A DNA stretch of 64,000 bases from an uncultured Bacteroidales bacterium (GTDB lineage Bacteria; Bacteroidota; Bacteroidia; Bacteroidales; JAGOPY01): contig CAWBCI010000020.1 of assembly GCA_963787195.1 (NCBI GenBank), forward strand, positions 60,237-124,236. Direction: 5' to 3'. The notes beneath the pieces were generated by a model, which worked only from the letters and a program-made list of their open reading frames with translations, ran no database searches and was not told the DNA's origin. Made by a program: the position numbers and the translations under genes. This document shows positions 29,724 through 62,326 of the stretch, piece by piece. Within the stretch, counting starts at the first letter, position 1, and each line of letters starts with the position of its first letter.

Positions 29724-30065
29724 TTAGAAAATTCCCTTTTCAAAAGCAGCTATCAGATCACCCGATATACTCAGACCAGAGGCATGGGGCGGCAGATTTC
29801 CCCTCTCAAACCAGCCTGCTTCTTTAATTTCCTTTTCATCAATGATTATTTGCCGGGTATCGTCGGCTTCAGCTGTAAAACCCAGCATGAGTGAGGCGGA
29901 GAAGGGCCAGGGCTGGCTTTTATAATATTTCAGATTCTTAATTTCCAGTCCTACTTCTTCTTTAACTTCTCTTATGACTGTCTCTTCGATTGATTCTCCG
30001 ACATCGACATAACCGGCAATGAGTGCATAAAAATCACCTTTATAGTTGTTGCCTTTGGCCAGCAA
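29724..30065 (-). CDS. nudC: Nudix hydrolase part of a disrupted NADH pyrophosphatase gene
   Basis: Nudix box GYVDVGESIEETVIREVKEEVGL. It is separated from the zinc-ribbon part by two frame changes. Confidence 0.75.
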   Translation of the reverse strand: MLAKGNNYKGDFYALIAGYVDVGESIEETVIREVKEEVGLEIKNLKYYKSQPWPFSASLMLGFTAEADDTRQIIIDEKEIKEAGWFERGNLPPHASGLSISGDLIAAFEKGIF

Positions 30066-30112
30066 TATTTTATTGTTGCATGGTGATGGCTACAATGACG
30101 GCGGGTAATATT

Positions 30113-30550
30113 TTAGGAAAGATGACCAAGCTTGCATTCCGGACAAACAATTGCTCTCTCATCCTTTTTCAATTCTGTTTTGGAACCGCATCTTCCGCAA
30201 TATCTGTTATTATTGTACCAGGTCATTAATTGATAACCTACAGAGCCGATCCATGCAAACTCTATGTTTTTCAGGTTTCTTAACATGAAAATATCATGGA
30301 ATTCAAATGAACCAGGATTTACCTGAGATTCAAATACTCCAAAACAATGATAGGAATTGATTGAAAACAAATAAAGCGGCGATTCTATGCTTTCATTGAA
30401 ATCCCTTTTTCTCGGAATTTCAAAATCATCTCCGGATTTCTTTAATAAGACCTGATTGTCCCTGTAACACAATAAAAAATCATCATCAGCTATTTCCTGA
30501 TCATGAATATATTTGTTATCGAAAATGCCCGGGCTTATTTCATTTAACAT
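30113..30550 (-). CDS. nudC: N-terminal domain + zinc ribbon part of the disrupted NADH pyrophosphatase gene
   Basis: CGRCGSKTELKKDERAIVCPECK zinc ribbon. The linking segment IFPKILPAVIVAIT is readable only in a third frame between 30065 and 30127. Confidence 0.75.
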   Translation of the reverse strand: MLNEISPGIFDNKYIHDQEIADDDFLLCYRDNQVLLKKSGDDFEIPRKRDFNESIESPLYLFSINSYHCFGVFESQVNPGSFEFHDIFMLRNLKNIEFAWIGSVGYQLMTWYNNNRYCGRCGSKTELKKDERAIVCPECKLGHLS

Positions 30551-33325: not shown

Positions 33326-33671
33326 TAGCGGATTGCAGATGGCAACTTCGAAGTTTAAAATCCAAGATGCAAATTCAATGAGACTGCGTCAACCCCTATA
33401 AAACTGGACTAATTTCATGCAAGTTAATAATTGATTGATTTGAAGCCATAATCATTTGATTGCAGTTCATCCGTCCTGTAAAGGACGGCTGAAATTAGCC
33501 CCGGTTTTCAAACCGGGGAATGGAGGAAATCGGCACAAAACCGGGTTCAAAGTGCAAAATGCAAAGTGAAGAGTTTAAGTTGGACAGTTATAAAGTTATA
33601 TCAACGCCTATATTACAACTGCAAAAATGGACGGAGGCTGTACAAAACGTCTCAAAACACGAATGTGTAGT

Positions 33672-33713: not shown

Positions 33714-34172
33714 TCAATTATCCTTCAGCACCACCTCATCATATTCGAGTTCGAAACGCAGTTTGTGCTTCGACTCTTCCTGGGCGAGGCTTTCGAAGAG
33801 AGAGCGGAGTAGCTGGTCGCTGACCCTGGCTGCAAGGTCGGAATAGAGCCTGAAAGCGGCCTTTTCCTTCTTCATTGCCACGATGAGCGCTTCCTGATAG
33901 CTCATGCCGGCATGGGGCTCAACGTCGACCAGATAATCGCTGACCTTTATATCCTGTACTTGTTTGGGAGTGAACTGGAACTGCCCACTGCTCTTGATAT
34001 TTTCCAGACGTCTTTTATGGCCGCGTTCCTCGCCTGCAAACTGCAGAAAAACATTCTTCATTTCCGGGTTACGGGCGGTTTCTGAAAGACCTGTATACAA
34101 ATCTACGCTTTCCTGCTCGCGACCAATGGCGAATTCTAATATGTGGTCGGATGAATTAAATTCCTGTAACAT
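33714..34172 (-). CDS. rubrerythrin/ferritin-like diiron protein (no rubredoxin domain)
   Basis: 152 aa with E..E..H-type pairs: AIGREQESVDLY, FAGEERGHKRRL, and C-terminal LAQEESKHKLRF. Confidence 0.8.
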   Translation of the reverse strand: MLQEFNSSDHILEFAIGREQESVDLYTGLSETARNPEMKNVFLQFAGEERGHKRRLENIKSSGQFQFTPKQVQDIKVSDYLVDVEPHAGMSYQEALIVAMKKEKAAFRLYSDLAARVSDQLLRSLFESLAQEESKHKLRFELEYDEVVLKDN

Positions 34173-34194
34173 GGTATTATGGTTTTTCAGTTAT

Positions 34195-35973
34195 TTATTT
34201 AGAACTAAGCATGGCATCGATTCCTTTGGCGGCCCTGTGGCCGTCGGCTATGGCACTGATGGCATCGGCGGTCCGGTTCACCGAATCACCCCCTGCATAC
34301 AACTTTTTAATGGAAGTTTGCTGGTGTTCATCCGTAACAATATGTCCGTGCTCTATCTTCAGCTTTTCCAGCCATTCGCTGCCCAGGAAATCAAAATATC
34401 CTTCCTGGCCTATGGCGCCTATAACGGTGCTTATCTTTAGTGTGGTCTCGCTGCCTTCTATCGGCACCGGCCGGGGACGGCGTCCCTTGGGGTCGTCAAC
34501 CATTTCAGCTTTCAGGTAAACGATTTCTTTAACGTGACCCTGCTCATCTTTTATAATATGGACCGGAATTGCTTGGGGCTCTATATGGATGCCTTCCTGT
34601 TCGCAGCCTTCGATTTCTTCCGGGTCGGAAGGCATGTCTTCAATACGCCTGCGGTACAGGACCTTAACTTCTGATCCCAGACGGCGGCTGACACGCGCAG
34701 CATCCATAGCCACATTACCTCCTCCGATCACCACGACATGCGGTCCCAGTTCTGGCTTTTTTCCTTCATTCACATCCCGCAGGAAGTCGATGGCTTGCAT
34801 GGAACCTATTGCTTCTTCGCCTTCTATGGCGATGAGGTAAGGTTTTTCGAAACCTATGCCCATGAAGATGGCATCGTAGGCTGCATAGAGTTCATCAAAT
34901 TTTACTTCCCGGCCTATCATGGTATTAAAATTGAACTGTACACCCATTTCCTCCAGCAAACCAATCTCTTTTTCAAGGATATCCATCGGCAGGCGGTACT
35001 TTGGAATACCATACATGGTAGCTCCACCCGGATGTTCTTTAGCTTCAAAAATAGTAATCCGGTAACCAAGAGTGCGCAGATAATAAGCAGCGCTGATGCC
35101 GGAAGGGCCTGCGCCTATGATGGCTATGTGCTTCTTAGCCTCCGGAAGTGAATCCAGGCCTAATATGCGCTTGTAATCTTCGAAAGGCACATTGTCGGCA
35201 ATGTAGCGCTTCAGCCAGCGTATTGCCAGCGGATCGCCCTTTACACCCACCGAACAGACTTCCTCGCAACGATGGGTACATACCCTACCACAGATTTCCG
35301 GAAGAGGGTTGGTGTCGTAAAGTAATTTCAGCCCTAAATCCAGATCACCCACGCGAACGGCATTAATATAACCCGGTATGTCCATATGGGCAGGGCAGGA
35401 GGCCACACAGATCCCACAGGATACGCAACGGTCGGCTTCCTTCTCGGCCTGCTCTTTGGAATAACCCTTGACGATCTCAATGAAATTGGTGACACGTTCA
35501 CCGGGTTCTATCTCCTCCATGTTGACCCGCTCGGGGTTGTAAAGCGAATAGCCAGGATTTGTCCAGCCTTTTTCACTGTTGTCCCAGGGCTTTTTGTCAA
35601 CCCCGGGGATATAGCGGAATTCATCCGGATTATCGGCAATCCAGGTATATTCGTTCGACATAGTAAGTGAACCCGTGGTGCATACATCCACGCAAAGAGC
35701 GCACCAGCAGCAACGTCCGTAGTCGACCATGGGCCTCAGGCCGCTGTCGCCTTTTTTGGTTTCTATTCCTTCAACCGGGACCAGGTCTATGGCCTGGTTT
35801 TCGCAGACAGCCTCACAACTTCCGCAGCCTATACAGGCCTGCACATCATTCTTATGGAAACCCCGGTAGCGGTCGGCACCCGGCCGTTCTGTGAAAGGAT
35901 CCCGCACCGTCACCGGCGAGCGGACTATATTGCTCCAGGCACTGAAGGGACCTATGATATCTTTGATCTTCAT
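34195..35973 (-). CDS. fusion protein: NuoI/MbxN-like 2x[4Fe-4S] subunit + GltD/NfnB/SudA-like NAD(P)H-dependent FAD oxidoreductase
   Basis: N-terminus PVTVRDPF..RYRGFH, CIGCGSCEAVC and CCWCALCVDVC. This is followed by CVSCGICVASCP, ICGRVCTHRCEEVC, IAIIGAGPSGISAA and VVVIGGGNVAMDAAR. Single uninterrupted 592 aa frame. Confidence 0.85.
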   Translation of the reverse strand: MKIKDIIGPFSAWSNIVRSPVTVRDPFTERPGADRYRGFHKNDVQACIGCGSCEAVCENQAIDLVPVEGIETKKGDSGLRPMVDYGRCCWCALCVDVCTTGSLTMSNEYTWIADNPDEFRYIPGVDKKPWDNSEKGWTNPGYSLYNPERVNMEEIEPGERVTNFIEIVKGYSKEQAEKEADRCVSCGICVASCPAHMDIPGYINAVRVGDLDLGLKLLYDTNPLPEICGRVCTHRCEEVCSVGVKGDPLAIRWLKRYIADNVPFEDYKRILGLDSLPEAKKHIAIIGAGPSGISAAYYLRTLGYRITIFEAKEHPGGATMYGIPKYRLPMDILEKEIGLLEEMGVQFNFNTMIGREVKFDELYAAYDAIFMGIGFEKPYLIAIEGEEAIGSMQAIDFLRDVNEGKKPELGPHVVVIGGGNVAMDAARVSRRLGSEVKVLYRRRIEDMPSDPEEIEGCEQEGIHIEPQAIPVHIIKDEQGHVKEIVYLKAEMVDDPKGRRPRPVPIEGSETTLKISTVIGAIGQEGYFDFLGSEWLEKLKIEHGHIVTDEHQQTSIKKLYAGGDSVNRTADAISAIADGHRAAKGIDAMLSSK

Positions 35974-35990
35974 TTTTATTGACTTGATGA

Positions 35991-37190
35991 TTATCGTTCT
36001 ATTTCAGGCGGACAGGTGGCCAGGGAAACCATAATGGCGCTGACGTCTGAAATATTGGCGTTTACCAGTAATTTTTCCAATAATGCAATAGCATGGGTAT
36101 AGCTTGGTCCTCGCAGGTTGATACGGCGGGGATATTCGCTACCGTCACTCACGGCAAAGAAACCATACTCACCGCGGGATGATTCGCTGCGGACATAGGT
36201 CTGCCCGGTAGGGATACTCCAGTGCAGCGCATTGGGGATCTTCCCTAATATTTCGCCATCCTTCGGCATTTTGTCCAGGATCTGTCTTATCAATTCCACT
36301 GTATATTTTAGGTCCATGTAACGCACCCAGGTGCGGCTGAAAATGTCGCTGGCGGCATCTTTATCCACATATGGTTCAAAGTCGAGTCGGTCATAAACAA
36401 GGTAAGGATTGTCCTTGCGTACATCGCGCCTGTAACCTGCTGCACGTGCATTTGGACCTACTATCCCGAATTTATCCACCCACTTCGGATCAAGGTATCC
36501 GGTGCCTATAGCACGTTTCTTGAAAACAGCGTTGTCGATCACCAGTCTTTTAAAGCGGACCAGGAAATCGTCTATAGCGTCCAGGTTGCTGATGAGGCGC
36601 TCTTTGAAGCCTTCCGGCATTTTGCCCCTCACCCCGCCAGGGATGATATACATATGATAGATGCGGGCGCCTGTAATTTCCTCGAAGCGGTCCAGGATGA
36701 GGTCGCGCAGGTAGACGCCCCATTGCACGCCAAGTCCGAGGCCCATAGTGCCCCCGTGAGCGGGCAGCAGGCGGAGCAGGTTAGCCATCCTGGCCATCTC
36801 CAGTATGAGGGTACGCATCCACTGGGCATATTCCGGAACCTCAATTCCTGAAAGCTCTTCCATGGCGGCGGCCAGATTGTATTCGTTGCTGTCGGGTTCT
36901 GGTACGCACATACGGACAACTGTCGGGAAGCACTGCATCCAGGTGCGGCGCTCGAAGATCTTCTCAAAACCGCGGTGCAGGTAGCCTACGTGGGTTTTGG
37001 ATTCCACCACTTCATCCCCGCAGACGGTCAGCTCTAGCGACATATTCCCGGTGACACCGGGATGGTTAGGGCCATGCCACAGCTTGATGTATTTGCCCGA
37101 ACTCAGGTCTATCTGCAGTTTACCGTCTTCTCCGGGCTGTGGATATACGCTCCGGTCGGGCTGTATCAGTATTTTGGTGTTATTACTCAT
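35991..37190 (-). CDS. NuoD / group-4 [NiFe]-hydrogenase large-subunit homologue lacking NiFe ligands (MbxL/Ehr-like)
   Basis: 399 aa with GYLHRGFEK. The N-terminal motif reads RMCVPEPD (CxxE instead of CxxC) and the C-terminal motif reads ATCPPEIER (CxxE instead of CxxC). Confidence 0.85.
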   Translation of the reverse strand: MSNNTKILIQPDRSVYPQPGEDGKLQIDLSSGKYIKLWHGPNHPGVTGNMSLELTVCGDEVVESKTHVGYLHRGFEKIFERRTWMQCFPTVVRMCVPEPDSNEYNLAAAMEELSGIEVPEYAQWMRTLILEMARMANLLRLLPAHGGTMGLGLGVQWGVYLRDLILDRFEEITGARIYHMYIIPGGVRGKMPEGFKERLISNLDAIDDFLVRFKRLVIDNAVFKKRAIGTGYLDPKWVDKFGIVGPNARAAGYRRDVRKDNPYLVYDRLDFEPYVDKDAASDIFSRTWVRYMDLKYTVELIRQILDKMPKDGEILGKIPNALHWSIPTGQTYVRSESSRGEYGFFAVSDGSEYPRRINLRGPSYTHAIALLEKLLVNANISDVSAIMVSLATCPPEIER

Positions 37191-37710
37191 TCGGATACAA
37201 TTTTTCTTTCATATAAGTCGCGGGATCATGGCTCTGACGGCCGGGTCTCGGAAAATAAGTTTCCTGACTGTATTTCAGCGTATCGAATTCTCGCCGCATG
37301 GGCGGTACATTATCCCAGCCCTCCAGGAGGAAGCTTTCGTCCACGCGAGGGCTCCCCGGGAAATCGATCCCGTACATTTCTTTCAGTTCACGCTGATATG
37401 TCCATGCCTGTTCCCAAAGGTGATGGGCCGAATGCATGACGGCTTCTTCCCGGTCGATATTAGTGCAAATGGAAATATCGGCGTGAAGTTTATGATTATG
37501 AATGATATAATTTAGTTCGAAGACTCCTTTTTCTATCCAGTCGGCAACGGTGATCATCACCAGATGTGAAAAGCCTTCCGCATCACGCAGATAGGTGACC
37601 GCAGGTATAGCCTGGTCTTTCCCGACTGTCACAAAGTACAGGTCTTCACGCTGCTTTTTAACAGTCGTAACTTTAAACATGCCCTGCAGACGTTCTATTA
37701 TCTTTTCCAT
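37183..37710 (-). CDS. NuoC (30 kDa)-like subunit (MbxK-like)
   Basis: 175 aa. Position and size fit between the NuoB-like and NuoD-like genes, and the stop overlaps the next start. Confidence 0.75.
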   Translation of the reverse strand: MEKIIERLQGMFKVTTVKKQREDLYFVTVGKDQAIPAVTYLRDAEGFSHLVMITVADWIEKGVFELNYIIHNHKLHADISICTNIDREEAVMHSAHHLWEQAWTYQRELKEMYGIDFPGSPRVDESFLLEGWDNVPPMRREFDTLKYSQETYFPRPGRQSHDPATYMKEKLYPNE

Positions 37711-37716
37711 AGTCGC

Positions 37717-38379
37717 TTACCAGTTATAATCGGGCATGTTCCAGTCCCGAATGATCTTCTTCTGATTTTCCTTGTAAAAGTCAAAGTTCTCGGCATAGCG
37801 GTTGGCCCCTTCGGCCTTGCCTGCTTTAATCCTTTTCTTCAGTGCCTCAAATCCGGCCAGTATGGCTTCCGGGCGGGGCATACAACCGGCCACATAAACA
37901 TCCACCGGCATATATTTATCCAGGCGGTTGATGGTGTTATAGCTGTCGAAATACATCCCGCCGTTTATAGTGCAGCTTCCTAAAGCCATCACGAATTTGG
38001 GGTTTTGCATTTGCTCGTAGCTGCGGATAGCCCTCTTGAGTGTTTTCACACTCAGGTAGCCCGAGATGATCATCAGGTTGGCCTGACGGGGAGTGGGACG
38101 CATCTGCACCCCGAAGCGGTAGGCGTCGAAGCGGGGAGTGAGCAGGGGATAGAGTTCTATGCTCCCGCAACCTGTCCCGAAACCCAGCACCCAAATGCTT
38201 TCGGCCCGGGCCCAGTTGAAGAAACTCTCGAATATTTTGGAACGCTTCGGCTCATGAATTTTCGGCCTGGCATCGCAGAAGTAATCCTGGATGGGGTCCA
38301 CCGTGATGTCCTCACCATTGGGGCCGATAACCGTACGTTTTTCTAAATCCGGATCTTTAAATGTTTTATTGCTTTCCAT
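37717..38379 (-). CDS. NuoB (PSST)-like Fe-S subunit (MbxJ-like) with only three conserved cluster cysteines
   Basis: FGTGCGSIEL (canonical CC or CxxC reduced to one Cys), LGSCTINGGMY, AGCMPRPEAIL, RPTPRQANLMIISG. Confidence 0.85.
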   Translation of the reverse strand: MESNKTFKDPDLEKRTVIGPNGEDITVDPIQDYFCDARPKIHEPKRSKIFESFFNWARAESIWVLGFGTGCGSIELYPLLTPRFDAYRFGVQMRPTPRQANLMIISGYLSVKTLKRAIRSYEQMQNPKFVMALGSCTINGGMYFDSYNTINRLDKYMPVDVYVAGCMPRPEAILAGFEALKKRIKAGKAEGANRYAENFDFYKENQKKIIRDWNMPDYNW

Positions 38380-38388
38380 CTTTATAAT

Positions 38389-39294
38389 TTATAAGATGAT
38401 TATTCCGATGATGCTGAGTGCCAGCGGCAGTTTCAGGAACCAGGGTATGCTCTGGTCGATGCGGAAACGAGGGAAAACCAGTCCCACGAACACCGGCCAG
38501 AAGAAGATTAAGAAGGCTTTTATGAATAGTACTATCCAGTTGGTGGCCCCCCCGAAGAAGAGGTTGACCATGAGGATGGATTCACTTACATAAAGTATGG
38601 CCCTGTTAGTCTGTAAAAGTCCCAGGTAAGTTCCGTGGTATTCGGTGGGAGGCCCTATTGGGATCTCCTGCGGGGCCTGTACCACGTTAAAAGGGGCTGC
38701 CCCCATCATACCCAGGAAAGCCAGCATGGCCGCTATCCCGGCAAAGGGATTGGTCATGATGTTCCAGTGCATGATCCCGCCCTGTTGTCCGGCAACAATG
38801 TCTGTCAAAGAAAATGAATGATGCTGAACGGCAATGGCAATAACTGCCAGGGTAAAGGGAACCTCTACAGTGGTAAACTGAGACAGACCGCGGCTGATGC
38901 CGATGAAAGAGTAGGGGTGTCCGCCTTCGCTGGCGCCCAGGGCCATTCCCAGCATTCCGAAGAACATGAAGTACATGATCAGGATCACATCCCCTGAAAA
39001 GGAGTAATTGCTCCAGTAATAGCTCCCGTAGATCAGCGGCATGAACATGAAGATGCCGACCCCGCCTGCGACACGGAAAACCGGGCCCAGGTAGAACATC
39101 ACCCCATGGGTGATCTGGCTGCGCATGGAGTAATTCTTGATCAGGTCTATATATGGCTGATAAATGGGCATGCCGATACGTTTGCCTATGCGCGCCGTGA
39201 TGCGGCGGATCAGCCCGTACTGCAGCAGGCCGTAATTCAGCACTATGAATAGTCCCAGGAGGGAGAACAACAGTTTTATCCAATCGATACTCAT
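38389..39294 (-). CDS. NuoH/ND1-like membrane subunit (MbxM/HycD-like)
   Basis: 301 aa, ~8 TM. PFNVVQAPQEIPIGPPTEYHG corresponds to the PFD..E.E...G..TEY loop. Confidence 0.8.
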   Translation of the reverse strand: MSIDWIKLLFSLLGLFIVLNYGLLQYGLIRRITARIGKRIGMPIYQPYIDLIKNYSMRSQITHGVMFYLGPVFRVAGGVGIFMFMPLIYGSYYWSNYSFSGDVILIMYFMFFGMLGMALGASEGGHPYSFIGISRGLSQFTTVEVPFTLAVIAIAVQHHSFSLTDIVAGQQGGIMHWNIMTNPFAGIAAMLAFLGMMGAAPFNVVQAPQEIPIGPPTEYHGTYLGLLQTNRAILYVSESILMVNLFFGGATNWIVLFIKAFLIFFWPVFVGLVFPRFRIDQSIPWFLKLPLALSIIGIIIL

Positions 39295-40838
39295 AATAAT
39301 TTTCCTCCGCTGATTAAGAGATACAGAACGAATGCATAAAGTAGCAGGTGCAGTGCGTAGGTCTGCCCGTTGCCGGTATACCAGGTACGCATTTTGTCGG
39401 CTATGGCCTCAGCCCATTCCGAAACGCCGTTCCAGAAACGTGTGGCCAGGGGCTTTACCAGGAAGCCCAGGGCTTTATTATAGCCTGCGAACATATTGTA
39501 GGAGACATGCGTTGTCTCGGGCCTGAAAGGCCTTTCGGCCGCGAAGACTATATTGAATTGTTTTACTTTCTGGGCCTTGCGGCTGTGGTACATTAGCCAG
39601 CCCAATATCACCGCAAACATCACCACCACCACGCTCATAACGCTAAAAGCGTTCCAGTATCCGAAGGAAGTGAAAGCCAGCTTTCCGTCCCATTGCAGAC
39701 CTTCTCCGGCAATACCAGCCGGAATGATTGTAGCGAGGGGTTTTAGCAGCACCTGCGGCGCTACCGAAAGGACCATGATAGCGATCATGAAAATGACTTG
39801 CGGCAGCATATAGGCAAAGGGGGCTTCTTTTACCCTGCGGTGATTATCTTTCAGCTGCCCCAGGAAGACCGATGCAATGAGTTTATAAAGGTAAAGGAAG
39901 GCCACTATACCGGAGAAGAACACCATGGTACCTTGTATGTACCAACCCTTCATGACCACGGCATTGTAGAACATCCATTTGCCGGCGAAACCGGCAAGGG
40001 GAGGCATACCTGCCACGGTGATGATGCCTATCAGCACCACGATGAAGGAAAGTGGCATGCTTTTGATCAGTCCGCCCATCTCATACATATTCCTCGTTTT
40101 GGTCCGGTAAATAACCCCGGCTGCCGACATGAACAGCATGGTCTTGTAAATAAAGTGCAATACCATATAGTAAAGTGCGATCAGAAGGCCCAGCTTTGAG
40201 TTCATGGCCAGGGCAAAGATGATATATCCCATAGCTCCTACACTGGAGTAGGCAATAAGCCTTTTCATATCTTCTTCATAAATGGCCAGCATATTACCTC
40301 CGATGGCAGTGATGGCCCCTATCCAGCCCATAAAGGTGTAAATGTCATAACCAAAAAGTTGTTGCGGACCGAAGGAGGTCACCAGCCAGAAGAGCCCGAG
40401 TATACCCGCATTAATGAGCACCCCCGAAACCAGCGGTGTAGCGTCATCTTCGGCTTCGCTATATGCACCCGGCAACCAGATATGCAGTCCGATAGCTGCC
40501 ATTTTCAGCATAAATGCCAGTGCAAAAAGTATGAATACCAGTCCGGCTCCCGGGACCACTCCGCCCAGGCTGCCGAAAAACTGTCCGCCGGCGTGCTGAG
40601 CTAACATTCCAAAAGCGGCTAACATCAGGTAAGCGCCGCCGGCCGAGAAGAGCATATACCGTAATGCAGCGGGTTCGGCTTTTTTACCGCGGAGTATCAG
40701 TACATAACTTCCTAATGCCATCAATTCCCATCCCATAAAGAAGGTCAGGTTATCGCCCGGCCTCACGAGCATTGTCAGACCGAAGATTGTCATGGCGGCA
40801 AAGGGATAGAAACCGGCCCTTATACCCTTTCTGCACAA
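39291..40838 (-). CDS. second MrpD/NuoL-M-N family antiporter-like subunit (MbxH'-like); N-terminus lies in another frame
   Basis: DNLTFFMGWELMALGSYVLI motif at residue ~30 instead of ~110. The missing N-terminal TMs are encoded in the tail of ORF 40750..42426. The frame junction is at CAGAAAGGGTAT, 40813-40824. Confidence 0.8.
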   Translation of the reverse strand: MCRKGIRAGFYPFAAMTIFGLTMLVRPGDNLTFFMGWELMALGSYVLILRGKKAEPAALRYMLFSAGGAYLMLAAFGMLAQHAGGQFFGSLGGVVPGAGLVFILFALAFMLKMAAIGLHIWLPGAYSEAEDDATPLVSGVLINAGILGLFWLVTSFGPQQLFGYDIYTFMGWIGAITAIGGNMLAIYEEDMKRLIAYSSVGAMGYIIFALAMNSKLGLLIALYYMVLHFIYKTMLFMSAAGVIYRTKTRNMYEMGGLIKSMPLSFIVVLIGIITVAGMPPLAGFAGKWMFYNAVVMKGWYIQGTMVFFSGIVAFLYLYKLIASVFLGQLKDNHRRVKEAPFAYMLPQVIFMIAIMVLSVAPQVLLKPLATIIPAGIAGEGLQWDGKLAFTSFGYWNAFSVMSVVVVMFAVILGWLMYHSRKAQKVKQFNIVFAAERPFRPETTHVSYNMFAGYNKALGFLVKPLATRFWNGVSEWAEAIADKMRTWYTGNGQTYALHLLLYAFVLYLLISGGKLL

Positions 40839-42426
40839 AGCCGGGGATCAGCGTCAGTATTCCTCCCACAAGGAAAACACCCATAAACAAAAGCTGCATA
40901 AGGTCGCCGCTGATCTCGGGATAGATGAGATATCCGTATGCTGCGAGTGAGATGATGAGTAATGTGTTTTTCGCAAATGCTGGCAGGAAGTCAATGACGA
41001 AGAATACAGCTATGACCGCCAGCGGCAGAAGTACGAAAAGCGGATCGAAACCGAGGTAGTCCGTAAAGTATGCCGAAGAGATCAGCAGGCTGGCACCGAA
41101 CAGCCAGACAGGTAGTTCCTTAAACCAGACCATTTCAGTTTCGGCGCTTTCATCCCTTTCAGCATGAAATACTTTTCCTAACCATTTAAACAGGAAGCTG
41201 ATTTCAAAAATGCTTCCCAGCAGTATCAGTATGATCCAGCTCCATGCATTACTCTGGGCAAGTAGCATGATCATATGCCATTTGGCGAAGAAAGAGGGGA
41301 AGGGCGGAAGTCCTGCCATGGCGGCTATGAAGACTCCGAAGAAAAAGAAAAGTATGGGTTTACTTCTGAGCATGGCCCATTTGTCTTTATCATCACTGTT
41401 CACCATGCCCTGCAGCCAGAAAAGTCCGGCCTTGGCGAAGAAGTTGGTGAGCAGGAAGCCTAATATGATGAACCAGAAGCTATTTCCGAAGTATCCTGCC
41501 ATAGGCACTACTGCCAGCATAAGTCCGCCCTGGGCCACAGAAGAGTAACCCAGCATGCGCCTTACATTTTCCTGACGTGTTGCAAGGTAGTTAGAAGCCG
41601 CGAAGGTGATCAGCCCGACGAGACCAATCACAGGTTGCCAGCTTTCCGGAACCAGAGGCATGATCTTATAGATAGCGAAAAGTACCGCAGGGGCTGTTGC
41701 CACAGAAAGTGCGGCCCCGACAGCAGGATGAGCTGATTGATACATGTCCAGCGCCCATCCGTTGGCTGGGAAAGGCTTGCTTTCGAGAAGCAGGGCGGTT
41801 ATGACCAGGAAAACCGCTACCGTGCCCCCTTTGATGGCCGCCAGGTTTCCCATGAAATCGATGTTGAGGTTACTGATATAGGAATAAGCGAAGATGATAC
41901 CCAGCAGCAATAAACCTGAGATCACCGAAGAGGCCATCAGATACTTGAATCCGGCCGAGATAGAATTTCTGTCCTGTATCAGTATCATCAGCCCTGCTGT
42001 GGCTATGGAGGTGATCTCCATAAAGACGAAGAGGTTGAACAGGTCGCGGGTCATCACTACCACATTCAAACCTAATATGAATACGATGAAGATTGACAGG
42101 ATATGCTTTCCTGATTTCTTCAATACATCAAACAAATAAATTACTGATACAAGACCGAAAAGGTTTATCATAGTAGTCAGCACGGCCTCTTCCAGTCCCA
42201 TGCGCAGGTTAATGGCGAAGGGAGGCTTGAAGCCGGCGGTGTACACATCCGTAGGTTGCAGTGATCCGGTCAGTAGGCCTGTCAGCCAGGAGCCGGAGAT
42301 AAAGGTCATGGCGCCTATGGCTATCAGCAATATATAGACCATGGCGTTTTGCTGGCGTTTGGTTCCCATTCCGAGCAGGAAGGCCGTGATCAGTGCGACG
42401 GAGACTATATGAACAGGACTTACCAT
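40750..42426 (-). CDS. first MrpD/NuoN family antiporter-like subunit (MbxH-like); the last ~100 aa belong to the next subunit
   Basis: 558 aa, multi-TM, FNLFVFMEITSIATAGLMIL motif. A possible internal start of the next subunit is MVWFKELP at 41133. Confidence 0.8.
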   Translation of the reverse strand: MVSPVHIVSVALITAFLLGMGTKRQQNAMVYILLIAIGAMTFISGSWLTGLLTGSLQPTDVYTAGFKPPFAINLRMGLEEAVLTTMINLFGLVSVIYLFDVLKKSGKHILSIFIVFILGLNVVVMTRDLFNLFVFMEITSIATAGLMILIQDRNSISAGFKYLMASSVISGLLLLGIIFAYSYISNLNIDFMGNLAAIKGGTVAVFLVITALLLESKPFPANGWALDMYQSAHPAVGAALSVATAPAVLFAIYKIMPLVPESWQPVIGLVGLITFAASNYLATRQENVRRMLGYSSVAQGGLMLAVVPMAGYFGNSFWFIILGFLLTNFFAKAGLFWLQGMVNSDDKDKWAMLRSKPILFFFFGVFIAAMAGLPPFPSFFAKWHMIMLLAQSNAWSWIILILLGSIFEISFLFKWLGKVFHAERDESAETEMVWFKELPVWLFGASLLISSAYFTDYLGFDPLFVLLPLAVIAVFFVIDFLPAFAKNTLLIISLAAYGYLIYPEISGDLMQLLFMGVFLVGGILTLIPGFVQKGYKGRFLSLCRHDNLRSDNAREAGR

Positions 42427-42791
42427 TTTGTTTCTTTAAAATCGTTAATATCCAGTGATTGACGGCTCTTGAACATTTTCAGCGCATAGGTGAGCATCAC
42501 CCCGGTAACCCCGACGCCGATGACGATGGAGGTCAGTACCAGGGCCTGCGGTATGGGGTCCACAAATTTCTCCGAGAGATGGTGTATACCCGTAGTGCTG
42601 TCGATGATAGGGGCCACGCGGCCTTTCATGTATGACAGGGCCACGATCACCAGGTTGAGGCCCCCGTCGAAGAGGGTGAAGGCCACGATGATGCGCAGTA
42701 TGTTCTTGCTGGTAAGGGCCCCGTAAAGACCTATGAGCATTAGCAGGAAACCCGTAGCAAGACCGATATTCTGAAGACTTAGATATTCCAT
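42420..42791 (-). CDS. MrpC/MnhC (NuoK-like) subunit
   Basis: 123 aa, 3 TM, GLYGALTSKNILRIIVAFTLFDGGLNLVIV. Confidence 0.8.
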   Translation of the reverse strand: MEYLSLQNIGLATGFLLMLIGLYGALTSKNILRIIVAFTLFDGGLNLVIVALSYMKGRVAPIIDSTTGIHHLSEKFVDPIPQALVLTSIVIGVGVTGVMLTYALKMFKSRQSLDINDFKETKW

Positions 42792-43490
42792 TATGCTTCG
42801 TTTTGAACTTCTTTAAGATGATGCAGTATATTCGACAGTTCAGCCCCGACTTTCAGCCCGATAAAACTGTAAATGATGGGTATGACGCCGGCGCTGAAAA
42901 GTTTACCCAGATCTCCCAGGGGCAGTATGTGGTTATTCAGGAAACCCAGACCTAGCAAGGCCCCTAAAATGCCTATAATGACATAGCTGGTACCCGAGAC
43001 GCTCTCGATAGCATTCAGCAGTCCGTGGCGGAAGTCACGCTCGCGGGTTGGCCATCAGCAGCAGCAGGAATCCCGTGGCTATGATGGCGCCACCCTGGAA
43101 ACCCCCTCCGGGGGTGAGGTGCCCATTGGCAAAGACATAAACCCCAAATAGTACGATCAATGGGAAGAGCAGCTTCTGCGCCGTAGTTAGTATCACCGAA
43201 GCCGGCCTGGGGTGATGTTCCTTATTAGGTTCATGCCCGGTCTTCAGGAACATTGCGATGAGCGATGCGGCCACGAAGAGTATGGTGACTTCCCCCAGTG
43301 TGTCGAAACCGCGGTAAGTGACTACCACGGCAGTCACCACGTTGGCGGCCCCCACTTCAGTTGGGGTATTGTCGGCGTAATAGGCCGGCAGTTCGGGAAG
43401 CTGTTTGTTCTCCTGGTGGGTGAACAGGTAGCTCCCCAGCAGCAGTCCGAAAGCCGCCAGTATAGCGATGATGAACATATTCTTATACAT
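42791..43490 (-). CDS. MrpB/MnhB-like subunit, interrupted by a frameshift near 43035-43050
   Basis: The track ORF 43035..43490 ends ..GHLTPGGGFQGGAIIATGFLLLLMANPRA*. My translation of the next frame continues REREFRHGLLNAIESVSGTSYVIIGILGALLGLGFLNNHILPLGDLGKLFSAGVIPIIYSFIGLKVGAEL..* and ends in TAATG overlap with the mrpC-like start. Confidence 0.75.
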
Positions 43491-43728
43491 CTGACCTCCT
43501 GATTTTATTCAGTACATAAAAGAAGATGATAGTGGTGAGCCCGCTACCGATTGCTGCTTCAGTCATGGCCACGTCGGGTGCGGCCAGCAGCAGATACAGT
43601 ATAGATGCGATAAGGCTCACGATGCCCGAAGCCAGAACGGCAGCCCTTACCCTTTTGGCTGTCAGGGCCGCGATAGCCATGCCCACCATGACCAGCCCCA
43701 GTACGATTGCTAAGATTATTCCTACCAT
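43483..43728 (-). CDS. MbhD/DUF4040-like (MrpB N-terminal type) membrane subunit
   Basis: 3 TM, AAPDVAMTEAAIGSGLTTIIF. Start set to the ATG at 43728, 1 nt after the mrpG-like stop. Confidence 0.7.
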   Translation of the reverse strand: MVGIILAIVLGLVMVGMAIAALTAKRVRAAVLASGIVSLIASILYLLLAAPDVAMTEAAIGSGLTTIIFFYVLNKIRRSDV

Positions 43729-43729
43729 A

Positions 43730-44077
43730 TTACTTTTCCTCCTTGTTTTCTTCGGCATTAGCCTCCTGCAGTTTGTCGATGACCGTCTTGTCCGACAGTG
43801 GGATGCCTATATGATGCGCCGCCCTGGCCAGGGTATGCGACGATACCGGGTTGGTCATCATCACGAAGGATATCAGTATGAAAGCCTTGCCGGCCCAGGC
43901 CGGGTTGATGATGGCCAGGCCTGCTATCGACAGTATGGTCCCCAGGGTGCTGGCCTTGGTGCCGGTTTGCAGGCGGTTGTAAAGGTCGGGCATGCGCACT
44001 ATGCCCAGGGCCCCCAGGAAAATGAAGATGGCCCCTATCAGGGTCACTATGCTTCCGATTAACATTCGTATTTCCAT
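43730..44077 (-). CDS. MrpG/MnhG subunit
   Basis: GALGIVRMPDLYNRLQTGTKASTLG. Confidence 0.8.
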   Translation of the reverse strand: MEIRMLIGSIVTLIGAIFIFLGALGIVRMPDLYNRLQTGTKASTLGTILSIAGLAIINPAWAGKAFILISFVMMTNPVSSHTLARAAHHIGIPLSDKTVIDKLQEANAEENKEEK

Positions 44078-44078
44078 A

Positions 44079-44339
44079 TTACAGTCCTTTCTCCAGGAAA
44101 CGGGCTATGACGATCACCCCGGTGAAGCTCAGAAGGCCATACACCAGCGCGACGTCGAGATAAATAATCCGGTTGTTGAAAAAAGCGATCAGCGCAATCA
44201 GCGCGATCGAGGTTACCGTCATCACATCAAAGGACATGATGCGGTCGGCCGAACTTGGGCCTTTCACAAAGCGCCAGAGGGCCGTAAGCATTCCCATCAG
44301 TATGAGTCCGCCTGCTATATAAAGAATGATCTCAACCAT
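44079..44339 (-). CDS. MrpF/MnhF subunit
   Basis: 86 aa, KGPSSADRIMSFDVM. Confidence 0.75.
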   Translation of the reverse strand: MVEIILYIAGGLILMGMLTALWRFVKGPSSADRIMSFDVMTVTSIALIALIAFFNNRIIYLDVALVYGLLSFTGVIVIARFLEKGL

Positions 44340-44826
44340 ACATTACCTCCAGGTATTTTTCAAATTTCGAAACGATAGAACGGGTTGCCTCCTCAATGTC
44401 GGTGCTGCTCACGTCTATCCAGTGAATGAACATGCGGTCATCACGGATATCCACGGTAAGGGTACCGGGTGTGAGGGTGATAGCGTTGGCCAGGAGCATT
44501 TTGCCGATGTTGGATTTAAGTTGCGTCTTTACCTCTACTATGCCCGGATTGATGGGCAGGGCAGGATTCAGCACCCGCAGGGCCACGTCGATATTGGATT
44601 TCAATAGCTCCCACCAGAACACTCCCACGAAAGCGATGGCGTAAGCGAAGCTCTTCGGCGTGAGGCGCACGTTCTGCAGTACCGTGCATGAGCTGCAGAG
44701 CAGCAGCCCGATCAGCAGGGAGATGATGGCCCCCGTGATGAGCACATCCGCATCCACAGACCAGTTCAGGGCCAGCCAGGTGAGGTAGGACAACACGAAG
44801 ATCAGTGTTACATTTTTCAGGTTCAT
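44332..44826 (-). CDS. MrpE/MnhE subunit, first gene of the operon
   Basis: LLANAITLTPGTLTVDI...FIHWID. Confidence 0.75.
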   Translation of the reverse strand: MNLKNVTLIFVLSYLTWLALNWSVDADVLITGAIISLLIGLLLCSSCTVLQNVRLTPKSFAYAIAFVGVFWWELLKSNIDVALRVLNPALPINPGIVEVKTQLKSNIGKMLLANAITLTPGTLTVDIRDDRMFIHWIDVSSTDIEEATRSIVSKFEKYLEVMYG

Positions 44827-44848
44827 GCCTTGAATATTAAATTCATGA

Positions 44849-44856
44849 CAAAATTA
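44849..44856 (-). promoter_or_regulatory. candidate -7 box TAATTTTG for the Mrp/Mbx-like operon
   Basis: The reverse complement of caaaatta matches TAnnTTTG, ~23 nt upstream of the ATG at 44826. Confidence 0.35.
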
Positions 44857-45152
44857 TATACACTGAACCTGAAATCGGAGCCATGGCTATAGAGATGGGT
44901 TTACTCCGGAATGAAAGTATGTGGAATTAAAAATAGACGTAGCGCAATAAAAAAGTTGACGTGACCTCAGCCCCCCCCTCCTCATCCCGGCTAAAGCGGA
45001 ATGTCGAGCAGTATTCTCAACCGACGGGTTAACCCGTCGGTTATGATTTCGAATTCCCGTCGGTTCTGATAAAGATACAGGTTAGTTTCCTGTGAGATGG
45101 TCCGTCAATAGCCGGACAGATCCACTCCGATTTTTTATGAACTATTTATAGC

Positions 45153-45194
45153 CCGTCATCCCGGCGCAGGCCGGAATCTGTAAGCGATGTGCAG
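45153..45194. repeat. single copy of the REP-type hairpin element seen at 33295-33340
   Basis: CGTCATCCCGGCGCAGGCCGGAATCTGTAAGCGATGTGCAG versus CGTCATCCCGGCGCAGGCCGGGATCTGGTAGCGGATTGCAG. Hairpin TCCCGGC-GCAG-GCCGGGA. Confidence 0.75.
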
Positions 45195-45256
45195 TTCCCC
45201 TTTTTTATGCAATGCAATTACCTTATTAAATATGTCCCCACCTTACCAAAATGAAC

Positions 45257-45264
45257 TAATTTTG
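45257..45264 (+). promoter_or_regulatory. candidate -7 box TAATTTTG for the FNR-like regulator gene
   Basis: Matches TAnnTTTG, 29 nt upstream of the ATG at 45293. Confidence 0.35.
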
Positions 45265-45292
45265 TACCCTGAATTTGAATGAAAGATTAACG

Positions 45293-45982
45293 ATGTTTGA
45301 TAATAAGAAAAGTTGCCCTATATGCGAAGCCAAGGCGGGATGTTTCCGCAAGCTCAGTCCATTGGAGCTTGAGGTAGCTGACTCCAGGCGGGTGGAACTG
45401 CGTTACCGCAAGGGCGAGAACATTGCAAAGCAGGGATCCTTTGTTACCCATATCCTCTATCTGCAGAAGGGACTGGTGAAGCTGTATATGGAAGTGGAAG
45501 GGGACAATGATATGATACTGAATATATTCACCAAAGGCGGCATGATAGGTCTGCCCAACCTGTTCACCAACGCCCCCTTGCAGTATTCGGTGTCGGCCAT
45601 AGAAGATTCGGTCATATGCGCCATCGACAAGAAAGTGATGGAAGACCTGGTGAAGAACAACGGCGACTTTGCCCAAAGCATAGTCGAGAGCATTAACCAA
45701 TGCACCTTATATCATTACAGGAGACTTATCACCGCCTCCCAGAAGCAGCTTAACGGCCGCATGGCCGACGCCCTGCTACACCTTTCCGACGATGTTTACC
45801 ACAGTGAAGATTTCAGCATGGCCCTATCTCGCAAGGAGCTGGCCGAATTAGCCGGAATGAGTATGATGAGCGCCGTAAGGGTCATAAAGGACCTGGAACA
45901 AAACGGCATCATAGCTGAAAGTAACGGCAGAATTTTGATTTCTGATCGGAATAAGCTGGAGCAGATCAGTCGGTATGGGTGA
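45293..45982 (+). CDS. Crp/Fnr family transcriptional regulator with an FNR-type N-terminal Cys cluster
   Basis: MFDNKKSCPICEAKAGCF (C-x2-C-x5-C) plus a central Cys (VICAID). cNMP-binding-like barrel and C-terminal HTH SRKELAELAGMSMMSAVRVIKDLE. Start moved from a TTG to the ATG at 45293. Confidence 0.85.
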   Translation: MFDNKKSCPICEAKAGCFRKLSPLELEVADSRRVELRYRKGENIAKQGSFVTHILYLQKGLVKLYMEVEGDNDMILNIFTKGGMIGLPNLFTNAPLQYSVSAIEDSVICAIDKKVMEDLVKNNGDFAQSIVESINQCTLYHYRRLITASQKQLNGRMADALLHLSDDVYHSEDFSMALSRKELAELAGMSMMSAVRVIKDLEQNGIIAESNGRILISDRNKLEQISRYG

Positions 45983-48974: not shown

Positions 48975-49427
48975 ATGGCTTCACATTTTAATTCCGTCCA
49001 CATCCATTTTGTGTTCAGCACCCTGAACAGGCAGAAACTCATCGCACCTGAAATCAGGGAAAGCCTATGGGCCTACATGGCCGGCATAGCATCAAATAAC
49101 AATATGAAAGCCCTGGTAATTGGAGGCGTCAGCGACCATGTCCACATGTTGATTTCCATGCCAACGACTATTACCATCGCAAAAGCCATACAATTAATCA
49201 AGGGTAATTCATCAAAATGGATCCATGAAGAATATAAGGACATAAGCAGGTTTGCCTGGCAGGTGGGATACGCATCCATCAGCGTAAGCCCCGGCCGGGT
49301 TGAAAGGACCGTCCGTTATATCCGCAACCAGGAATCGCATCATCGTGAAATGACCTTCAGGGAAGAATACCTGAAATTCATCAAAGAGGCCGGCCTTTCA
49401 TACGATGAACGGTTCATCTGGGGTTGA
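48975..49427 (+). CDS. IS200/IS605 family Y1 HUH transposase, RAYT-like (second, divergent copy)
   Basis: 150 aa with HUH SDHVHMLIS and a catalytic Tyr region VRYIRNQESHH. Small TTC/GAA-loop hairpins lie on both sides (AATCCAT-GAA-ATGGATT upstream; GTCCC-TTC-GGGAC and GGTCCG-TTC-CGGACC downstream). Confidence 0.85.
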   Translation: MASHFNSVHIHFVFSTLNRQKLIAPEIRESLWAYMAGIASNNNMKALVIGGVSDHVHMLISMPTTITIAKAIQLIKGNSSKWIHEEYKDISRFAWQVGYASISVSPGRVERTVRYIRNQESHHREMTFREEYLKFIKEAGLSYDERFIWG

Positions 49428-49687
49428 GACATGTACCGTCCCTTCGGGACTCGGAAACTTATTCTTGCCACCTTACCCAGACCTGAAGGGCGGGGCTATT
49501 GCTGTGCGGTCCGTTCCGGACCAGGGACATTGCTGATTTCGGAATTCAGATTGACGGAATTCACCCCCGTTTTAGTCTCAGTGGGGAGTCTCAGGCTAAG
49601 TGGGTGATTATGGAAGCTTGGATTGGTGGGTTAATATTGATTGCAGCTTGTTGATAGCCGATGGCGGATTCCTCATTGTCATTTTCA

Positions 49688-49878
49688 GTCGCGAAGCGAC
49701 GGTTGAACATAGCCCCGACATTCATGTCGGGGTAGGGAGAGCGGAAGAAAAATTGAAAGTCCCGTAAGGGACATAACAACAATAGCCCGGGCATTTATGC
49801 CCGGGGGAAAGGTGCAGTCTCGTAATTACAAGTCCCGTAAGGGACGAAACAGCCATTCCTGACATTTATGTCGGGAAT
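49688..49878. repeat. three tandem ~72 bp units, each with two short GC-stem hairpins
   Basis: Hairpins: GTCGC-GAA-GCGAC (49688-49700), CCCCGACATTCATGTCGGGG (49713-49732), GTCCC-GTAA-GGGAC (49759-49772), CCCGGGCATTTATGCCCGGG (49786-49805), GTCCC-GTAA-GGGAC (49832-49845) and CCTGACATTTATGTCGGG (~49858-49875). Confidence 0.8.
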
Positions 49879-56377: not shown

Positions 56378-56421
56378 AATATATTTCTTTGATTAATTGA
56401 TACGAAAGGGATGTAATATTC

Positions 56422-57036
56422 TTACTTGCCCAGGGTAAAATCGGCAATCACAATCACCTCTCCTTCACTGTTTTTAACTAATAAATCTTCGCCATCAAAA
56501 AATAATACGCAAGAGCCTACAGGCGGATCATCCGGATAATCGTCTGCTGAAATTAACACTTTCTCTCCGATTGAAAGATTGTCAGAGGGGCTGTCTGTTA
56601 GTATACCCACTCTTCCATTACCTGTTTCCACCCTCATTATCTCCATAAGACCTCCAAAAAACGCGATATTTGCGTCGACCCCGTCTCCTGCTATCAGCAT
56701 AATCTGGTGGTCGGAAGTTCCGATTTTTTCTTCTCCGCCTTTGAAAAGTTCAATTTTTGTATCATAATGCGAATTTGGTAATACAATCTTACCATCTGTT
56801 CCGCTTATTTCAACATTTCCCTGGATATCCAGTTTTTCTTCCGGGTTAATGGTACCAATTCCAACATTCCCATTTTCACCGGGCTCAAAGAGGATGTGTT
56901 TACATGCAGTATCCCCTTTTACGTGGAGAATGCTGTTAGTGGCGGGATTAGTGCCATCTTTGTTTATTGCTACCTGTGCATTCATTGATCCTGCAATAAG
57001 CAGCATCGCTGTTGAAATGATAAAAAGTTTCTTCAT
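56422..57036 (-). CDS. secreted hypothetical protein (no CTD)
   Basis: Signal peptide. GNVGIGTINPEEKLDIQGN resembles motifs in tail-fibre-like Bacteroidota proteins, but the match is weak. Confidence 0.45.
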   Translation of the reverse strand: MKKLFIISTAMLLIAGSMNAQVAINKDGTNPATNSILHVKGDTACKHILFEPGENGNVGIGTINPEEKLDIQGNVEISGTDGKIVLPNSHYDTKIELFKGGEEKIGTSDHQIMLIAGDGVDANIAFFGGLMEIMRVETGNGRVGILTDSPSDNLSIGEKVLISADDYPDDPPVGSCVLFFDGEDLLVKNSEGEVIVIADFTLGK

Positions 57037-57126
57037 GATATTTTTTTTATTTCACCCCCTTTCTCCCTCCCGCTTAATGCGGGACAGACTCTCTCCAACT
57101 TGAAGAGGGGGTCGGGGCCGATGTAT

Positions 57127-58317: not shown

Positions 58318-58323
58318 GGCTTT

Positions 58324-59316: not shown

Positions 59317-59388
59317 GGTTTTTTGGTTTTTGACCTCACCCCTTTCTCCAACTCTCAAAATTGGAGAAGGCTACTGGAGGAATGGTGA

Positions 59389-62258: not shown

Positions 62259-62326
62259 GGTTTGGTTTTTGACCTCACCCCCATCCCTCTCTCCGCAACG
62301 GAGAGGGGATGACTGAGGAGGAGAAT

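Follow-up and report, generated by a model that had tools for sequence, protein, structure and literature searches.

A stretch of 64,000 nucleotides (nt) from an uncultured Bacteroidales bacterium (GCA_963787195.1, CAWBCI010000020.1, positions 60,237-124,236 of the forward strand; hereafter the window, with positions counted from its first nucleotide) was found to carry on its minus strand, from 44826 to 34195, a tightly packed array of co-directional genes, as judged from the open reading frame (ORF) map and Pfam matches. The array is an operon of 12 genes, two of which are frame-broken in the present assembly, and its last gene joins an MbsN/NuoI-like domain to a flavoprotein of the NfnB/GltD type. 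The operon adds a new Bacteroidota member to the bacterial MBS/Mbx family, which is known, widespread and biochemically uncharacterised. We read the locus as an ion-pumping NAD(P)H:sulfane-sulfur oxidoreductase of the bacterial MBS ('Mbx') type, possibly reversible, and give this reading about an even chance of being correct.

The Pfam order in the first half of the array is MNHE, MrpF, MnhG, MbhD, MbhE+MnhB, Oxidored_q2 and two Proton_antipo_M domains, and in the second half NADHdh, Oxidored_q6, Complex1_30kDa, Complex1_49kDa and a last product with Fer4x2, Fer4_20 and Pyr_redox_2. This is the order A-B-C-D-E-G-H-H'-M-J-K-L-N of the Pyrococcus furiosus MBS (subunit list in PMC7684303), and a first-pass annotation, made from the sequence alone, had likewise matched it to the archaeal mbx/mbs operon. 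That annotation listed thirteen genes; their content and order stood, and the count is 12, its MrpD and MrpD' being one gene split by a +1 insertion. Its two antiporter-like pump subunits are present as two modules, not as separate genes, since H and H' are fused and form a single ORF in the closest relatives. NuoE, NuoF and NuoG, which it had reported missing, were indeed not found by Pfam among the cluster ORFs; NuoA and NuoJ were not found there either, and an Mrp module stands in their place. No NfnA-like gene was present in the operon or its immediate flanks according to the ORF list and Pfam.

The L, J, K, M, H and H' sequences and the N domain were searched against all PDB chains, and for every subunit tested the P. 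furiosus MBS (PDB 6U8Y) ranked first among the solved structures, before complex I and hydrogenases. The large subunit aligned with 6u8y_L over its full length (E 3.8e-84, 286 bits, 40% identity), while the partial alignment with NuoD reached about 187 bits and those with MbhL and HycE 115 and 86 bits. Its motifs RMC95VPEPD and TC393PPEIER correspond to RICVPEPD and NCPPDIDR of MbsL, so that only two of the four NiFe-ligand cysteines are present, aligned with MbsL C85 and C385, and the PF00374 score of 17.4 bits lies under the cut-off of 25.8. These results agree with the earlier statement that CVPE and CPPE mark a protein other than a hydrogenase, and by PDB search scores the large subunit falls outside NuoD and the hydrogenase groups. 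What had been described as the lack of a canonical NuoD C-terminus is better described as an MbsL-type C-terminus, with CPPEIER against CPPDIDR in MbsL. Alignment to NUCM showed Thr at the position of the NuoD quinone-site His and Val at that of the Tyr. Among 72 MbsL-like sequences from related loci, the equivalents of C85 and C385 varied (C/A and C/Y), as expected if these cysteines are vestigial and non-catalytic, and the VPEP and PPE(I/V)ER motifs were strongly conserved across the related loci.

The NuoB-like subunit aligned with 6u8y_J (E 4.6e-63, 216 bits, 53% identity). Its motif GFGTGC71GSIE corresponds to AFC25TGC28GGIE in MbsJ, and C71, C136 and C166 align with MbsJ C28, C93 and C123, which are the only ligands of the MbsJ proximal cluster (PMC7684303). 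In 63 MbsJ-like sequences from related loci the three ligating cysteines were invariant and the C25 position was Gly in nearly all. The subunit is accordingly predicted to hold a three-cysteine, site-differentiated proximal [4Fe-4S] site; the GCGS motif and the three cluster cysteines had been noticed in the first-pass annotation, and the site-differentiated MBS cluster that it cited is confirmed by the published structure (PMC7684303). In P. furiosus, activity was kept after the C25A change in MbsJ and the C85A/C385A changes in MbsL, and the free iron of the proximal cluster is the proposed catalytic site (PMC7684303).

The remaining subunits gave the same picture. The NuoH-like protein scored 154 bits with 6u8y_M and at most 61 bits with NdhA, MbhM and NuoH, and the NuoC-like protein had 6u8y_K as its sole solved match (E 8.8e-11). 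The N-terminal half of HH' matched 6u8y_H, and the C-terminal half matched 6u8y_X (MbsH') through residue 613 of 618. A group 4 [NiFe]-hydrogenase (MBH/Ech/Hyc) was rejected because the CxxC pairs are absent and the MbhL and HycE scores weak. Canonical complex I was also rejected, because the quinone-site residues of NuoD are missing, the NuoB-like subunit carries one Cys in place of the tandem, and the large subunit scores far higher with MbsL. At the level of sequence, these comparisons support an MBS/Mbx-type Mrp-NuoHBCD complex that is neither a hydrogenase nor a canonical complex I.

The fusion gene is a continuous ORF of 592 amino acids (aa). Residues 1 to about 120 correspond to MbsN/NuoI with two [4Fe-4S] sites, and residues ~150-592 to two further [4Fe-4S] sites and Rossmann domains for flavin adenine dinucleotide (FAD) and NAD(P)H. 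The cysteine motifs are of the ferredoxin type at 47-57 and 88-98 and of the GltD type at 183-193 and 228-240; the nucleotide motifs are GAGPSG and GGGNVAMD...YRRR (Y440-R-R-R443). All 16 cluster cysteines, the FAD motif, GGGNVAMD and Y440-R-R-R443 were invariant in 80 sequences, down to 53% identity. Residues 7-110 matched 6u8y_N (E 1.3e-19), and residues 150-590 matched Thermotoga maritima NfnB (4ylf_B, E 1.5e-89) and also P. furiosus NfnI-L (5jca_L). The C-terminal module further aligned with the NfnB-like domains of NfnABC and StnC and with GltD, the alignments to this whole group running end to end over residues ~150-592 with 300-320 bits and ~38-41% identity, and the two [4Fe-4S], FAD and NADPH (YRR) motifs of NfnB, NfnI-L and GltD are conserved in it. 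The YRR segment aligned with the conserved YRR of the NADP(H)-binding NfnB and NfnI-L, a homology from which we infer that the flavoprotein module prefers NADPH. Unlike NfnAB, the module has no NfnA/[2Fe-2S] partner, is fused to NuoI/MbsN and is encoded in a membrane-complex operon.

The AlphaFold2 model of the fusion, built on an alignment of family members, had a mean pLDDT of 89.2 and a pTM of 0.84. Together with the ordered linker of the model, these values suggest that the two domains are fixed relative to each other. Foldseek placed NfnI-L as the top match to the model (target TM 0.88), and its PDB search returned no solved structure spanning both domains. Residues 2-591 aligned to positions 7-608 of 611 in the NCBIfam model NF010590/PRK13984 ('putative oxidoreductase') with 708 bits, under the equivalog cut-off of 946; on these scores the window fusion is a diverged subfamily of PRK13984. 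Full-length homologues of ~590 aa formed more than 120 clusters at 90% identity, so that the fusion seen in the first-pass annotation is real; read-through or mis-assembly as its origin was rejected in view of hundreds of full-length homologues.

The genome survey for such fusions beside Mrp genes, which the first-pass annotation had proposed, used one genome per species and gave at least 600 pattern matches, of which at least 540 encode a relative; the fusion is thus encoded in at least 540 species genomes from many phyla. Carriers among the matches listed include Bacteroidales/Marinilabiliales, Chlorobiota/Ignavibacteria, Cloacimonadota, Spirochaetia, Deferribacteres and Neomarinimicrobiota, together with the gammaproteobacterial Chromatiales, Thioalkalivibrio, Ectothiorhodospiraceae and a Thiosymbion ectosymbiont. 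Of 70 loci, 68 have an MbsL-like gene immediately before the fusion gene, and of 48 loci, 46 have the complete A-L set upstream of it; in 46 of 48 related loci the operon begins with the mbsA-like gene. In the two layout exceptions, L006 (the Thiosymbion ectosymbiont) and L024, the MbsL-like gene is ~1 kb from the fusion gene, and upstream in L006 no A-M genes (Mrp-type module, H/H', M) were detected. Six spirochaetal loci (L038, L047, L049, L060, L069 and L073) carry a second NfnB/GltD-like paralogue ~1-3 kb downstream of the fusion, which is 37-40% identical to the C-terminal module of the fusion and possibly of the nfn type.

When 1.84 billion representatives clustered at 50% identity were searched exhaustively, about eleven full-length fusion clusters were found, one of which is Thermosipho melanesiensis P0128 (616 aa, 46% identity over residues 4-590). 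The Thermosipho locus (L081) has the same 13-gene operon followed by a rubrerythrin/ferritin-like gene. Publications on T. maritima (PMC9431562) and Mesotoga refer to the Thermotogae operon as 'Mbx', and Degli Esposti 2015 described a Thermotoga mbx-like operon with a gltD-related flavoprotein, noting the rubrerythrin-like gene that trails it. The architecture is therefore already known from comparative genomics, contrary to the first-pass annotation, which could not place it; the Thermosipho operon, the 2015 description and the PRK13984 model all provide a place. The same annotation expected the fusion to lie outside the characterised enzyme families, and no biochemical or structural study of the fused enzyme was found in literature searches, which were noisy because 'Mbx' and 'mbsl' are ambiguous terms. 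The only experimental datum found for the Thermotogae form is a 4.4-fold increase of T. maritima mbxA with S0 (PMC9431562).

Comparison with the solved and described systems showed where the window operon stands. It shares with the P. furiosus MBS the gene order, the MbsL motifs R-x-CVPEPD and CPP(D/E)I(D/E)R, the three predicted Cys ligands of the proximal cluster, an MbsE that is an MbhE+MnhB fusion, and two antiporter-like pumps with a C-terminal region aligning with the end of MbsH'. It differs in that the archaeal MbsN is a stand-alone, ferredoxin-fed subunit while that of the window is fused to the ~440-aa flavoprotein, that H and H' are joined in one polypeptide, that the non-ligating C25 of MbsJ is Gly, and that the host is a mesophilic bacterium. 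The Thermosipho operon resembles that of the window in the fused Fer4-Fer4_20-Pyr_redox_2 last subunit, the trailing rubrerythrin/ferritin-like gene and the conserved MbsL motifs, but its H (450 aa) and H' (614 aa) are encoded by two genes, and its MbsJ (L081 7836-8378) keeps the CxxC (HYCTGCGAVE) as in P. furiosus. Gly replaces the first MbsJ Cys in a mesophilic bacterial clade to which the window belongs, and fused or separate H-H' is a second split within the family. With complex I (Nuo/Nqo) and the photosynthetic NDH-1 the complex shares homologous NuoB/C/D/H/I/K and antiporter-like subunits and an Fe-S wire towards a membrane-proximal chamber; unlike complex I it lacks NuoEFG, NuoA, NuoJ and the quinone-site His/Tyr, has an Mrp Na+/H+ module, and shows a single Cys (GTGCG) where NuoB has tandem CC.

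Two genes of the operon are interrupted in the window; the first-pass annotation had overlooked both +1 insertions and the H-H' fusion. The closest related loci are those of a Bacteroidales metagenome-assembled genome (MAG; L001), Saccharicrinis sp. FJH62 (L002) and a Chlorobiota MAG (L004). In the mbsE-like ORF the PF04039 (MnhB) match ends at profile position 50 of 127, and the remainder of the domain is readable in a different frame at 42791-43030. Alignment of the DNA revealed one extra base near 43038 in the window relative to L001-L003, and L001, L002 and L004 encode the homologue intact, in one ORF of 231-233 aa (232 aa in L001). A script found both halves within one ORF in 48 of 50 loci, and the remaining two look like an artefact of the script. 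The ORFs first taken as MrpD and MrpD' (558 and 515 aa) have 88 nt in common, the latter having a TTG start and lacking transmembrane helices 1-3, and DNA alignment again placed one extra base in the window, near 40833. H and H' are one ORF of 1044-1046 aa in L001, L002 and L004 (1044 aa in L001), and of 55 related loci 34 have them in one ORF and 21 as separate genes. A natural MrpD/MrpD' gene boundary was rejected, because the loci with separate genes split into ~500 + 620 aa, not 558 + 515; it is also excluded by the single ORF in the three nearest relatives and by the extra base of the window.

The insertions may be errors of assembly or real mutations. Outside the operon, a nudC-like NADH pyrophosphatase gene (29724-30550, minus strand) has two frame changes within ~70 nt, its Zn-ribbon ORF ending at 30113, its middle part lying in a second frame and its Nudix-box ORF (29724-30065) in a third. 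As this gene is broken too, indels also occur beyond the operon; an error of assembly is plausible, and we consider it a serious possibility as the source of the operon frameshifts. If instead both insertions were real, the operon would be inactivated in the present genome, an explanation that we regard as possible but as clearly the less probable one. It is favoured by the absence of a long homopolymer run at either insertion and by the resemblance of the block to an acquired island. The block, comprising regulator, operon and rubrerythrin gene (33714-45982, 12.3 kb), has a G+C content of 50.6%, whereas most of the window lies at 43-44% and the 4 kb adjoining the block on either side at 35-37%, and nucleotide homology to the three closest relatives stops exactly at its borders (33716-45982); the block may be a laterally transferred module. 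Against inactivation, every other ORF of the operon is intact, with 74-97% protein identity to L001 and no further stops, and the two frame changes of the nudC-like gene point to a general indel error rate of the assembly. With two genes frame-broken, an intact complex may not be expressed from the present sequence.

For the reading as an NAD(P)H:sulfane-sulfur oxidoreductase we infer the donor, the acceptor, the direction and the ion stoichiometry. NAD(P)H, probably NADPH, would pass a hydride to FAD, and the electrons would continue through the two GltD-type [4Fe-4S] clusters and then the two MbsN [4Fe-4S] clusters to the site-differentiated proximal cluster of the MbsJ-like subunit. This cluster would be the catalytic site, facing a chamber built by the MbsL-, MbsM- and MbsH'-like parts, and would reductively cleave the sulfane S-S bond of a polysulfide or an organic persulfide/polysulfide. 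The redox step would drive the two antiporter-like modules of the fused H-H', which would pump H+, and the Mrp module, which would carry out Na+/H+ exchange. NAD(P)H, entering via the fused flavoprotein module, would thereby replace or supplement free ferredoxin at MbsN. GltD, which uses the same FAD and 2x[4Fe-4S] module as a simple NADPH-to-Fe-S wire, is a precedent for such a path. The reading is favoured by the invariance of the ligating cysteines, the closeness of all tested subunits to MBS and the conserved motifs of the fusion. Further support comes from the ordered linker of the model, the conserved place of the MbsL-like gene before the fusion gene, and the occurrence of a fused N subunit in Thermosipho and of a gltD-related flavoprotein in the Thermotoga operon (Degli Esposti 2015). 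Catalysis by MBS at the three-Cys proximal cluster, with dispensable vestigial cysteines (PMC7684303), and the rise of T. maritima mbxA with S0 (PMC9431562) also speak for it.

Several points weigh against this reading, and energy is the main difficulty. The potential of NADP+/NADPH is ~-320 mV and that of polysulfide/sulfide ~-260 to -270 mV, and the gap of ~50-60 mV corresponds to ~-10 to -12 kJ per 2 e- at standard potentials, which is too small for a two-pump machine unless in vivo ratios enlarge the gap. With so small a gap the enzyme would probably work near equilibrium and may be reversible. Ferredoxin may dock on the MbsN domain, and a more complex routing of electrons is possible, as Nfn bifurcates electrons at its NfnB subunit. 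The fusion also occurs in sulfur-oxidising Gammaproteobacteria, where the forward direction is not obviously useful; no assay of any fused-type enzyme was found in the literature; and mbsE and mbsHH' are frameshifted in the window itself.

It is conceivable, though in our judgement improbable, that the family is a reversible 'NADP(H):sulfane-sulfur complex I', running forward in fermenters and backward in sulfur oxidisers, or that it performs flavin bifurcation between the membrane chain and ferredoxin. Fermenters would then dump NAD(P)H electrons onto polysulfide with ion pumping, and sulfur-oxidising Gammaproteobacteria would use the ion gradient to make NADPH directly from sulfide/polysulfide. 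If true, the reversed operation would represent a path of reverse electron flow that has so far gone unrecognised.

A physiologically reverse direction of the enzyme, in which the ion gradient would push electrons uphill to NAD(P)+ from sulfide/polysulfide or a different substrate of the chamber and so supply NADPH, above all in the sulfur-oxidising Gammaproteobacteria with the operon, is rather unlikely. By the established potentials the gap is small and the reaction readily reversible, complex I is a precedent for reverse electron transport, and the carriers Chromatiales, Thioalkalivibrio, Ectothiorhodospiraceae and the Thiosymbion ectosymbiont would fit. The present host, however, is a heterotroph resembling Bacteroidales/Marinilabiliales and has an FNR-type regulator, the carriers are mostly fermenters (Cloacimonadota, Spirochaetia, Ignavibacteria, Thermotogae), and the induction of mbxA by S0 in T. 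maritima (PMC9431562) points the other way.

We also doubt that the complex is an ion-translocating reduced-ferredoxin:NAD(P)+ oxidoreductase, Rnf-like in function, as in the pre-2018 'Mbx' model. Degli Esposti 2015 put NAD(P)+ reduction at the gltD-like subunit, the Mesotoga model has Mbx as a ferredoxin:NAD(P) oxidoreductase, and the Thermotogae enzyme is still modelled as ferredoxin-driven in publications (PMC9431562; Mesotoga model). The driving force from ferredoxin to NADP+ exceeds that from NADPH to sulfur, and NfnB naturally links ferredoxin with NADP(H). Electrons passing from MbsN to FAD would, however, skip the proximal cluster and the membrane-adjacent chamber, and the three-Cys cluster and the VPEP and PPE(I/V)ER motifs of MbsL are strongly conserved; the model is less attractive because its path bypasses this conserved cluster and the chamber, the coupling site of the superfamily. 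The archaeal Mbx has moreover been re-assigned as a sulfane reductase (PMC9431562, PMC7684303). Least probable is an NADPH-dependent complex-I analogue reducing menaquinone or another non-sulfur acceptor in the chamber: the layout of nucleotide-flavin module, Fe-S chain, NuoB/D/H-like chamber and antiporter-like pumps parallels complex I, and NADPH to menaquinone would yield ample energy for two pumps, yet the quinone-ligating His/Tyr positions are Thr/Val, a single Cys replaces the NuoB tandem, the large subunit favours MbsL (286 bits) over NuoD (~187), and the Mrp module stands where NuoA and NuoJ are absent.

In evolution, MBS is considered to stand between membrane-bound hydrogenases and complex I; to our knowledge it has been studied solely in hyperthermophilic archaea. 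The locus belongs to a much larger bacterial MBS branch, with at least 540 species genomes, in which the catalytic core is hard-wired to a predicted NADPH flavoprotein. If the favoured reading holds and NAD(P)H is the real partner, the family would provide a natural non-NuoEFG nucleotide-input module on a complex-I-like scaffold, and estimates of energy conservation and sulfur cycling in common mesophilic anaerobes would change. The present window holds an ordinary member of the family, possibly mis-assembled or inactivated at two sites. The genes of the operon and its two neighbours are listed in Table 1.

Table 1. Genes of the MBS/Mbx-type operon and adjoining genes of the block, with window positions.
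Feature	Position	Strand	Evidence
mbsA-like (MrpE/MnhE), 164 aa	44332..44826	-	PF01899 MNHE, E 2.1e-40
mbsB-like (MrpF), 86 aa	44079..44339	-	PF04066, E 1.2e-16
mbsC-like (MrpG), 115 aa	43730..44077	-	PF03334, E 4.1e-25
mbsD-like (MbhD), 91 aa	43483..43758	-	PF13244 MbhD, E 5.3e-20
mbsE-like (MbhE + MnhB/MrpB), +1 insertion near 43038	42791..43490	-	PF20501 + partial PF04039
mbsG-like (MrpC/NuoK), 123 aa	42420..42791	-	PF00420, E 1.3e-21
fused mbsH-mbsH', +1 insertion near 40833	39291..42426	-	two PF00361 domains
mbsM-like (NuoH-type membrane anchor), 301 aa	38389..39294	-	PF00146; closest PDB chain 6u8y_M
mbsJ-like (NuoB-type), 220 aa	37717..38379	-	closest PDB chain 6u8y_J; C71, C136, C166
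mbsK-like (NuoC-type), 175 aa	37183..37710	-	PF00329; 6u8y_K
mbsL-like large subunit, 399 aa	35991..37190	-	6u8y_L; vestigial NiFe-site Cys95, Cys393
mbsN-NfnB/GltD fusion, 592 aa	34195..35973	-	Pfam, PDB matches, AlphaFold2 model
rubrerythrin/ferritin-like di-iron protein, 152 aa	33714..34172	-	PF02915, E 1.1e-16
Crp/Fnr-family regulator, divergent from operon	45275..45982	+	PF00027 + PF13545

The rubrerythrin-like gene lies 22 nt downstream of the fusion gene, and its product has no rubredoxin domain and no Cys. A homologue is found directly downstream of the fusion in 16 of 66 related loci, and the protein would probably serve in protection against O2 or peroxide. The regulator has the cysteines Cys14-x2-Cys17-x5-Cys23 and Cys115, which is the spacing of the [4Fe-4S] ligands of Escherichia coli FNR; from these residues it is probably an oxygen sensor, and an FNR-like regulator suggests anaerobic induction. 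It is conserved beside the operon only in the three closest relatives. A scan for sigma-70 promoters and terminators, which is ill-suited to Bacteroidota promoters, performed no better than shuffled controls.

Two matches to the Rfam small RNA motif Acido-Lenti-1 were identified on the minus strand (33472-33518 and 49687-49732; 40-42 bits, above the gathering threshold), the former just downstream of the rubrerythrin gene and the latter adjoining an IS200-type transposase gene (48975-49427, plus strand). A composite element flanked by these matches found no support, only a hairpin core of ~46 nt being common to both while their flanks are unrelated.

Elsewhere in the window, four large proteins with type IX secretion C-terminal sorting domains (Por_Secre_tail), which support a Bacteroidota origin, are encoded at 54488-63944 (minus strand); one of them has 1434 aa with Lcl_C, BNR and CarboxypepD_reg domains. 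A long co-directional cluster at 96-29371 (minus strand) resembles a pigment pathway of the flexirubin/aryl-polyene type. It encodes several ketoacyl synthases, an aromatic amino acid ammonia-lyase, an MMPL transporter, a glycosyltransferase and an acyltransferase-methyltransferase, together with BtrH_N/DUF4872, an ABC-2 permease and an amine-oxidase-like FAD protein.

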